Source of the DNA: Candidatus Poribacteria bacterium
GTDB taxonomy: Bacteria > Poribacteria > WGA-4E > GCA-2687025
Direction of reading: 5' to 3'
Assembly: GCA_963665845.2 (NCBI GenBank)
Contig: OY762492.1
Coordinates: 3,488,001 to 3,552,000, forward strand
Length of the DNA stretch: 64,000 nt
Both the position numbers and the translations under genes were made by a program. The notes beneath the pieces are model-generated. The model did not search any database. It was not told where the DNA came from and saw only the letters and a list, made by a program, of their open reading frames with translations. Positions 15,794 through 17,661 of this stretch are shown here, piece by piece. The stretch's first letter is position 1. Each line of letters begins with the position of its first letter.

Positions 15794-16027
15794 CGGCGCC
15801 CCGTTCTGTTGTTTTGTCCATGTTATACCATGCCTGCGCCCGCCCGTCTTTATTCTCTTCCGCCGGGCAGTTTCTATAGGCGATGATGTACGAAAATCCT
15901 GTTTGTGTCGCGCTACTCGTCATTCTACGCGCGGCTAAAATCCCCCCAGCCCCCTTTTCAAGGGGGGAGTCTAGAAATCCCGCGCCCTACCCGTTGTCAT
16001 CGGACGGCCGTCATTTGTATGATGATC

Positions 16028-16212
16028 TTGCCCCTCGAGTCGATGCATACTTAAGGGGTAGCGCGGTGAGACTCCAGACCGTCTTAGGCGAGCTGCTTCG
16101 CAGCGGCGCCGTGCGGGAGTATCGAGAGCCGCGCAAAGAAGACAAGAAAGACCGGAGGCTCCGCACAGATACAGTGTTCTTGTTACAGAATACAAGTTGG
16201 GAGGCCGGTCCT
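16028..16212 (+). ncRNA. Predicted IS110 bridge RNA (5' stem, target-binding loop, donor-binding loop)
   Basis: ACAGATAC(16165) equals the right-end donor; ATACAAG(16190) is the reverse complement of junction CTTGTAT; ACCGTC(16078) and GCGGGA(16113) match the REP target; stems GACCGG/CCGGTC and GCTGC/GCAGC. Confidence 0.8.
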
Positions 16213-16244
16213 CCTTGTCCTTTTCTCCTGAAAGGAGAACGAAA

Positions 16245-17441
16245 ATGACCATACCACGCAACGACGCAAACAACAACAAAATCGCCGCCGGAATCGACGT
16301 GTCCAAAGACACGCTTGAAATTTCCATCAACGGCGGGGAAACCTCCACCATTAAAAACGCCGCGAACCCCATCAAGCGGTTCATCAAACGCCTCCTGACG
16401 ACCCACCCCAACATCAACATGGTCGTCTTTGAACCGACCGGCGGATACGAGCGGAAACTGGCGTCGCTGCTCGCCGAAGCAGAGATCCCTTACCACCGCT
16501 GCCATCCAAACTTTGCCCATAACTTCATCCGCTCCTACAGCGTCCGCGCCAAGACCGACGCGCTGGACGCCAAGATGCTCGCGCTGTATGGGCTGAGCCG
16601 CGATCTGAAACCGACGAAACCGATCGATCCGGTCGTGAAAAAGGCTCGCCGCTGGATGACGATACGCATGCAGCTGGTGAAAACGATCACTCAGTGGACC
16701 AATCGGAAGCATCTGCTGGACGGCGAGGCGACCAAGGATGCGACCGAAGAGATCATCCAGTCCCTGAAAGAGAGGCGCGACGCGGCGGAGCGGGAAGCTC
16801 TGGCATTGGTCAAGAAAGAGGCAGAGCTTCGCGAGAAGTTCAGCCTGTTGAAGAGCATTCCGGGCTTCGGGGTTCTCATTTCCGCGTATCTGGTTCTTTA
16901 TGTGCCGGAGTTGGGCAATCGGAGCGGCCGTCAGATCTGTTCCCTGCTTGGTTTGGCTCCTTGGGCGCACGAGAGCGGCAAGTCGACAGGTCGGCGCCGC
17001 ATTTGGGGCGGTCGGAGCGATGTTCGCGCGCTTCTGTATATGTCGGCGATGTCGGCGATTCGTTTCAACCCCGACATGAAGGCGTTTTACGAGCGTCTGA
17101 AGGAGAACGGCAAGCCTGGGAAGGCGGCTCTTGCGGCGGTGATGCGGAAGTTGGCGGTTCTTGCGAACGCGATTCTGAAGCGTGGAACGCCTTGGGTTCC
17201 TTTGGATGAGTTGCGTTCTTTGGCGCCATCGGAAGAGTCGGCGTCTTCCGATGAGCAGGATGAAACAGCGGCTGCGGCGCCATCGGAAGAGTCGGGGTCT
17301 TCCGATGCGTCGGTCGCGGCGCCGACCGGAACATCTGCGTCTTTGGATGAGGCTGACGGGGAGGCGCTGCCGGCGCCTGGAGAAGCGCCGGCAGCGGCGT
17401 CTTCGGATCCGCCGTCAAGCGACAGGACGCAAGGCAGATGA
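16245..17441 (+). CDS. IS110 recombinase (DEDD RuvC + Tnp domain) with an acidic low-complexity tail
   Basis: GIDVSK, FEPTG, KTDALDA, SIPGFG, HESG; RBS AAGGAG. Confidence 0.95.
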
Positions 17442-17661
17442 AAACCCTTTCCGAGAGACAGCTGCGGCGGCTCCTTCGGCTCTTGCCGAAAAATATCCGC
17501 CGCGGCGACTTTCGGGACAACAGAAAGTGCGAAATGGTTGACTTTGAACACAGATACTCCCGTGTAAGCGGGAATCCAGAGGCATCGGGGATGACGTCCG
17601 CGTTCCCATGCCGACATGTCCCAACTTAAGACGTAAGGTCAGGAACGATCCGCAGACGAAC

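Follow-up and report, generated by a model that had tools for sequence, protein, structure and literature searches.

The locus described here raises the question of how an IS110-group element can join two sites whose core dinucleotides differ. The window, the whole stretch of 64,000 nucleotides that was analysed, contains one such element inserted in a repetitive extragenic hairpin (REP). The cores of the target and of the donor are not identical and have only T9 in common. Identical cores are typical of IS621 but are not described as family-defining (PMC11187229). The ends of the element, an intact enzyme, a single target site, the unlike cores, four putative guides and two putative handshake dinucleotides are legible in the sequence. 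We think it quite probable that this is an intact IS621-type element, found at one base of the REP with a TT target core and a CT core of its own, whose left end is the likely source of a bridge RNA; by prediction this RNA guides the recombinase and accommodates the unlike cores.

All features given below lie on the forward strand. The element is 1543 bp long (16016..17558), with ends set by nine full genome copies. The original prediction placed an element at 16007..17562. The element is upheld and its limits are narrower, because 16007-16015 and the bases from 17559 onward are REP halves. The left target arm GCCGTCA (positions 1-7; 16007..16013) is the left half of a CGTC-1-type REP, a family defined in PMC3733652. 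It is followed by the target-derived core TT (positions 8-9; 16014..16015), present at 10/10 left junctions. The right donor arm TGTAT (16016..16020) is identical in the IS621 donor given in 10.64898/2026.08.31.748434. At the far end the left donor arm ACAGATA (17550..17556; 9/9 full copies) runs into the donor-derived core CT (17557..17558), which is found in 9/9 full copies and in 10/10 right-end hits of a related genome (G001). Beyond it lies the right half of the REP hairpin (17559..17579), here CCCGTG against the consensus CCCGCG.

The left non-coding end measures 229 nt and the right 117 nt, which fits the IS110 group and not IS1111. No long subterminal inverted repeats were seen in the element ends, which were read by eye. 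The left end carries a predicted -10 box TATGAT (16018..16023; a consensus match only) and the right end a predicted -35 box TTGACT (17538..17543) that is conserved in the copies and in relatives. When the ends are joined in silico these boxes form TTGACT-17-TATGAT, by sequence a predicted circle-junction promoter. For the window copy in place, the flank offers a -35-like TTGTCA (15994-15999) at 18 nt from TATGAT, also as a consensus match only.

A ribosome-binding site AAGGAG (16232..16237) precedes the intact recombinase gene of 398 aa (16245..17441). The protein contains PF01548 and PF02371 (Pfam) and scores 186.9 bits against NCBIfam NF033542 (cut-off 140). In the alignment D18, E63, D105, D108 and S244 correspond to D11, E60, D102, D105 and S241 of IS621, and the hydrophobic wedge residues Y265, M266 and M269 are kept. 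Residues 15-317 align to the nearest solved relatives, IS621 and ISCro4 (E-values 1e-27 and 2e-29). By its residues and domain models the protein is a DEDD/serine recombinase of the IS110 family. The family and the IS621-type layout that had been proposed are thus borne out by the DEDD/S residues, the NF033542 score and four guides in IS621 order. The C-terminal tail of 80 residues (17199..17438) is rich in Ala, Ser, Glu and Pro, of low complexity, acidic and internally repeated, and is confined to the nearest homologues (42-66% identity).

The host genome (G000; 3.98 Mb, 90% complete) contains nine full copies and one truncated copy (G). Seven are 90-95% identical and two are 64-69% identical (H and I). 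All ten lie at the same base of a CGTC-1-type REP hairpin, within its GTCA arm. Left junctions read YCGTCA-TT-TRYAT in 10/10 copies and right junctions ACAGATA-CT-CCYG in 9/9 full copies. With all copies mapped to one REP position, the proposed targeting of host REPs holds genome-wide and extends to relatives.

The REP hairpin is found 1652 times over both strands, or at about 830 sites. Its CGTC/TGTC tag, 8-bp stem beginning with AT, 4-nt loop and CCA-type tail conform to the CGTC-1 definition, as judged from position counts over 724 sites (PMC3733652). The GTCA arm makes up 724 of the 1652 strand hits. TT-CCCGC is offered by both arms, and the opposite arm is used by 0/10 copies. Empty REPs read GTCATTCCCGC in 997 cases and have another base at position 8 in 6; the CT form CGTCACTCCCG occurs once. 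Occupied sites are enriched for bases that fit the guide: 5/10 start with ACC against 88/724 overall (binomial 0.004), and 8/10 start with NCC against 226/724 (binomial 0.002); both tests overstate the enrichment because the copies are related and not independent. The REP-associated tyrosine transposase (PF01797) was not found in the 90%-complete genome, despite the roughly 830 CGTC-1 REPs.

The reading frame is whole in 4/9 copies (window, B, C and D) and broken in 5/9, which counts against our reading. The copies are mosaics. Copy H, with a 5' part of the window type and the rest of the I type, is a recombinant of two sub-families. Copies H (1533511) and I (746706) on G000:C1 represent the second sub-family, with the same ends and target and with frameshifts at like places in both. 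The site of copy E fits the guide of copy F (7/8) better than its own (5/8).

An empty REP at 24858..24888, within a MITE at 24783-24950, serves as a model of the pre-insertion site. A second lies at 43815..43845, within a MITE at 43741-43907. These MITEs are 168 bp long and have terminal inverted repeats of about 27 bp starting with CTGACC, a 7-8-bp target duplication and an internal REP. Copies or halves are found in many places in the genome, and a right arm also lies 3' of the element at 17616-17642. Tandem 20-bp repeats of the REP left half precede a whole REP at 32134-32225 and 44648-44740 of the window and are common in the genome.

The left non-coding end contains the predicted bridge RNA (16030..16224), with a 5' hairpin, a target-binding loop and a donor-binding loop. 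Folding of 16030-16230 gives z = -2.8, and 3/200 shuffles fold as well. The same three-part fold is obtained with the guides held open, a constraint that costs 7-15 kcal/mol, and it also forms in copy I and in two more distant elements, L093 and L091. Covariation in the fold is thin, with double changes at 4/58 consensus pairs in six copies. An Rfam scan of the window returned tRNA only, and no family reached its gathering score over the predicted RNA.

Both loops open with CUCC and two linker bases, after which comes the 8-nt left guide. The left target guide ACCGUCUU (DNA ACCGTCTT; 16078..16085) fits ACCGTCAT at 7/8 positions, with U at position 8 and a mismatch at position 7. The right target guide GCGGGAG, followed by the handshake UA (16113..16121), is identical in 10/10 copies and also in L093; over 16113-16123 the complementarity to the consensus right junction extends to 11 nt. 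In the donor loop the left guide ACAGAUAC (16165..16172) has C at position 8 and fits the donor at 8/8. The right donor guide AUACAAG, followed by the handshake UU (16190..16198), varies together with the right donor arm, as copy I shows.

The motifs on which the original prediction rested are all in place, namely ACAGATAC (16165-72) and ATACAAG (16190-96) in the donor loop with the stem GACCGG (16150-55) and CCGGTC (16205-10), and ACCGTC (16078-83), GCGGGAG (16113-19) and CCAGACCGTC (16074-83) on the target side. The hairpin described between the target guides exists, with bulges (GGCG-A-GCTGC-TTC-GCAGC-GG-CGCC) rather than an unbroken stem. The 10/10 match between CCAGACCGTC and the REP flank of the MITEs is real, as the same sequence starts at 24854 and 43811. 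A longer pairing is not supported; CCAG belongs to scaffold and linker. AG precedes ACC at 4/5 occupied ACC sites against 47/88 empty ACC REPs, and there is no CCAG enrichment beyond the ACC preference.

The guide matches were compared with 10,000 dinucleotide shuffles of 16030-16230, taking the best match per guide. The observed match was reached in 358/10,000 shuffles for the left target guide (7/8), 5/10,000 for the left donor guide (8/8), 30/10,000 for the right donor guide (7/7) and 0/10,000 for the right target guide with its handshake (11/11). All four together were reached in 0/10,000.

Covariation points the same way. In copy I the right donor arm TACAT is accompanied by the guide ATGTAAG. 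The left target guide of copy I and of an orphan RNA contains GUCAU in register with the REP, and in copy F a U at guide position 2 accompanies T2 at its own site. The orphan (L238, G000:C1 ~2788110-2788340) is a diverged sequence resembling a bridge RNA, and its guides suit the same REP and donor. It adjoins a MITE, is without a transposase and has a shortened target-loop hairpin. The left target guide matches the copies' own sites at 5 to 7 of 8 positions, and in 9/10 copies it has a mismatch at position 7, beside the core; this too counts against our reading. Its register is fixed by copy I, the orphan RNA, L093 and the UG handshakes described below. Reading the guide as AGACCGU-CU, with a CT core and a two-base DNA bulge, was rejected, as it falls on the same diagonal and its C is then target position 6.

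The handshake of the target loop, UA, pairs with donor TA in 10/10 copies. That of the donor loop is UU in the window copy and G, UA in six copies and UG in H and I. UG pairs with target CA in these two of the ten copies and in L093 and L091; in the other eight, one of the two bases pairs.

The TT/CT difference noticed at the window copy is a property of the whole set, with TT at 10/10 left and CT at 9/9 full right junctions, and it recurs in relatives. The guides follow it for the most part. Position 8 of the left target guide is U in 10/10 copies. Position 8 of the left donor guide is C in 8/10 and U in 2/10, and the latter two count against our reading. The G:T wobble that had been suggested to absorb the difference fits, but would be needed by the two right guides only, by one before and by the other after strand exchange. 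The left guides would do without it, each of them matching the base 8 of its own partner.

In G001, which represents another species of the genus, a left-end pattern with position 8 left free gave 19 matches, namely eight contig ends with TT, three scars and eight unrelated sequences. The right ends have CT in 10/10 hits, one of them decayed, and the repeats of this genome number 202 with TT and 0 with CT (GTCACTCCCGC). A genome of another family (G064) contributes a single right junction, which also enters this repeat. Its record is the right junction only, since 19/19 matches to the left-junction pattern in five genomes of its genus were unrelated.

L093 is a whole element, 39% identical to the window element, with TT at its left and CT at its right junction. 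Its left target guide CCGUCAUU ends in GUCAUU, its right target guide and the adjoining handshake are as in the window, and its donor handshake UG fits target CA. L091, which is 61% identical to L093 (via the identical protein P0017), has the left junction GTACCCA-CT and a guide GUACCCAC ending in C. It combines a CT target with C at position 8 of both left guides. Both elements are on stand-alone contigs from a bin with 0 REP copies, which counts against our reading. In a tree of 59 rows made by a quick method, L093 groups with L091, apart from the window clade; on this quick tree TT targeting was gained twice or lost once, in L091. Plasmid-borne relatives have CT at both junctions in six of nine loci, those with both ends readable. 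From the junctions of G001, L093, L091 and the plasmid relatives, the unlike cores appear to be a lineage trait tied to the CGTC-1-type repeat. The position-8 covariation comes from few independent lineages, which counts against our reading.

Family-level homologues at 29-36% identity (L003-L009) have none of the junction motifs of the element. A protein search of genome contigs left 1/78 candidates, a 33% relative. A pattern scan of metagenome contigs gave 33/33 chance matches, at loci without element or protein, and of the loci from a pattern scan of viral contigs 0/60 had the protein. Across 176 genomes a 12-nt right-end pattern gave mostly chance matches, and a 23-nt junction pattern was found in 3/176.

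The unlike cores follow from the published IS621 structure. In IS621 cleavage of both top strands falls between positions 9 and 10, T9 is contacted by protein and C8 is not, and two handshake bases pair with positions 6-7 of the incoming strand (PMC11208158). By analogy, the ends of the window element would join into a circle, ACAGATA-CT-TGTAT, building a promoter that would drive the RNA. The target loop would open the REP and the donor loop the circle junction, and both top strands would be cut after position 9 and exchanged. Base 8 would then stay with its own left arm, so that the left junction reads TT and the right one CT, as in every junction seen here. As the top strand of IS621 is cut 3' of the core, identity at position 8 is not required. 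Cutting ahead of base 8 would depend on CT targets, of which there are hardly any. Top-strand-only transfer, as proposed for CazIS110 (10.1101/2025.10.25.684509), fits the window junctions as well.

Each left guide would read its own base 8 on the bottom strand, and both right guides would keep a G opposite base 8. On exchange the pair in the target loop would change from G.T to G-C, and that in the donor loop would change in reverse. Position 8 would thereby act as an extra handshake base. Since A7 is common to target and donor, the handshake would fall to positions 6 and 8 instead of 6 and 7. On this tally the elements with UU (the window copy and G) or UG (H, I and L093) would be driven forward, and the six copies with UA would have roughly no net drive. 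Forward tuning is not uniform, since UA in 6/10 copies pairs with its own donor before exchange, an arrangement that is inhibitory in IS621 (PMC11208158); this counts against our reading.

Sequencing reads were checked in six different runs of 11 listed, as contigs, with four covering the window copy and four covering copies B and D. Among the read-derived contigs listed, of a kind that drops rare forms, none had the ends joined as in a circle, and among the rows listed in the six runs none held an empty allele of an occupied locus. The orthologous G001 stretch has different neighbours and no empty allele. One run (X5) contains a relative; the contig with its element begins at this left junction too, and its depth is about nine times that of the flank. 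In one RNA run (X10, from a relative, as contigs) the left end and the gene are at similar low depth.

Short remnants at REPs may come from the same enzyme. One REP of the window is interrupted, where the element would insert, by 12 bp (36960..36971) made up of 10 left-end-like nucleotides and CT, a likely scar of imprecise loss of the element. Three like scars of 12 bp in G001 (L079, L082 and L089) match the left end of the G001 element, which has CT at bases 11-12. The truncated copy G (L016, G000:C1:469921-470372) breaks off at a CT within the gene, and the REP right half follows that CT. These scars and the end of copy G likely arose from the enzyme using a cryptic CT; slippage at a shared four-base TACT is a less likely alternative. 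Partial and half-match reactions are described in 10.64898/2026.08.31.748434, 10.64898/2026.08.14.744561 and PMC12288879, and for ISPpu9 alternative core dinucleotides are reported when the ends are altered (PMC12288879), as the scars suggest here. With its RNA region complete, copy G could be a substrate for mobilisation in trans. Elsewhere on G000:C1 there are a lone left junction (523376; L239) and a lone right junction (3739047; L240), each with unrelated DNA on the inner side. REPs at G000:C1:630776 and 2683240 read GTCG-TACT-CCCG, one base short and donor-like at positions 6-9, and are possible excision footprints.

Two further genes of the window were noted. An IS1-like transposase gene lies at 19664-20398 (weak PF03400, with helix-turn-helix and zinc ribbon hits). 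At 12221-13426 there is a TolB-like propeller protein with a C-terminal V-x-P-x-x-K...W-G-x-I-K motif, which we take to be typical of Poribacteria; its strict form occurs 13 times in the genome.

How much work base 8 does is the point on which readings of this locus diverge. We propose tentatively, as something near an even call, that bridge recombinases require no more than one shared base, that position 8 is a third handshake base, and that this lineage uses T/C there, A7 being shared, to drive insertion into a TT repeat; the scars would be excision slipping to a nearby CT, as the true left junction is without CT. The mismatch may instead be merely tolerated, with a one-base core (T9), a free base 8 and no added direction, in the same element with the same RNA. 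We give this somewhat below an even chance. It is compatible with the reading given at the outset, and the sole point of difference is whether base 8 contributes drive. It agrees with the protein contact at T9 and not at C8 in IS621 (PMC11208158) and with 15/117 IS621 off-target sites at which the CT core is absent (PMC11208160). The two wobbles also cancel across the loops, and the donor handshake works against exchange in 6/10 copies. Against it, the G opposite base 8 and the target-loop handshake UA are kept in 10/10 copies and L093, and UG in H, I, L093 and L091 pairs with target CA after exchange, offsetting the lost G-C.

Two other readings were weighed. If CT were needed on both sides, entry would have been at rare CT REPs and the left junction would later have become TT by repair or conversion. 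The elements studied so far do share a two-base core (CT in IS621, AG in ISPpu9), engineered site pairs are filtered for identical cores (10.1101/2025.05.14.653916), the ISMno7-like plasmid relatives have CT at both ends, and the mosaic copies indicate that conversion happens. CT REPs are nearly absent, however (one CGTCACTCCCG in G000 and 0 GTCACTCCCGC in G001). There is no CT left junction among the 10 in G000, the eight and three scars in G001, and L093, and position 8 of the left target guide is U wherever it is readable in those; we judge this account very improbable. It is also unlikely, if less so, that the REP is picked mainly by its hairpin or by the protein, with the guide matches secondary. 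A target stem-loop raises ISPpu10 insertion (10.64898/2026.03.19.712850), and the left guide fits its own sites imperfectly, as noted. Yet ISPpu10 depends on base pairing, to which the stem-loop is no more than an aid (10.64898/2026.03.19.712850), only the guide-matching arm of a symmetric hairpin is used here, and L091 combines other guides with another target.

IS621 and ISCro4/IS622 (PMC11208160, PMC11208158, PMC13626964, 10.1101/2025.05.14.653916; PDB 8wt6, 9t56) are the closest well-studied systems. They share with the window element the DEDD RuvC and Tnp serine enzyme, the long left and short right end, the order of 5' hairpin, target loop and donor loop (predicted here), a junction promoter (likewise predicted here), the identical donor arm TGTAT and the shared ACAG, the handshake dinucleotides and a REP target. 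The window element differs in having a TT target and a CT donor with fitting guides, A in common at position 7, a CGTC-1-type REP rather than the E. coli REP, and contiguous 7-nt right guides. Compared with IS621 its recombinase is distant in sequence, has His for N84 and Pro for A61, and bears the 80-aa acidic tail. The nearest named element is ISMno7, 36% identical to the window protein, with similar ends (TGTAT left, ACAG... right) and donor-loop motifs. Unlike the window element, ISMno7 and the plasmid relatives have CT at both junctions, at the six of nine loci with both ends readable, and are without the CGTC REP target and the tail.

ISPpu9, ISPpu10, ISPa11 and ISRm19 (IS110/IS1111) are likewise reported with every copy at one host REP position (PMC1525189, PMC12288879, 10.64898/2026.03.19.712850), and REP-targeting IS110 elements have long been known (PMC1525189). 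Shared two-base cores are reported for ISPpu9 (AG) and ISPpu10 (CT), in contrast to the window element, and ISPpu10 did not tolerate a mismatch at position 7 (10.64898/2026.03.19.712850). The host REP has the CGTC tag, the 8-bp stem starting with AT, the 4-nt loop and the CCA tail of the CGTC-1 repeats dRS3 of Neisseria and RPE-6 of Rickettsia (PMC3733652), and differs from these in that no PF01797 was found in its 90%-complete genome. PivNM-type IS110 genes are reported near Neisseria REPs. Natural re-targeting is known, and the family is not characterised by target duplication (PMC11187229). Durrant et al. changed the cores on both partners together (PMC11208160). Among the matches listed from the supplements of that paper, no target was centred on the window REP site. 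We found no account of natural unlike cores in the literature searched, which comprised openly accessible texts, and one may exist elsewhere. The guide-encoded TT/CT cores are thus likely what is new here; the family, the RNA layout and REP targeting were already known.

The discovery pipeline of PMC11208160 took cores to be repeated end sequences and would misplace or miss elements of this kind. Bridge-editing designs pair identical-core sites only (10.1101/2025.05.14.653916), and the core has been called invariant (PMC13626964). A guide-encoded core difference would loosen this matching rule, which is used in the design of gene-editing tools. If one shared base is indeed enough, editors based on IS621 or ISCro4 could join unlike cores, the choice of site pairs would become several-fold wider, and a new handle on direction would be gained. 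The many TT-left/CT-right insertions are a natural record in which the product at position 8 is set by the top strand. Together with the base-reading guides they make the matching rule directly testable with a ready guide design, and the element in the window is a clean, multi-copy test case.
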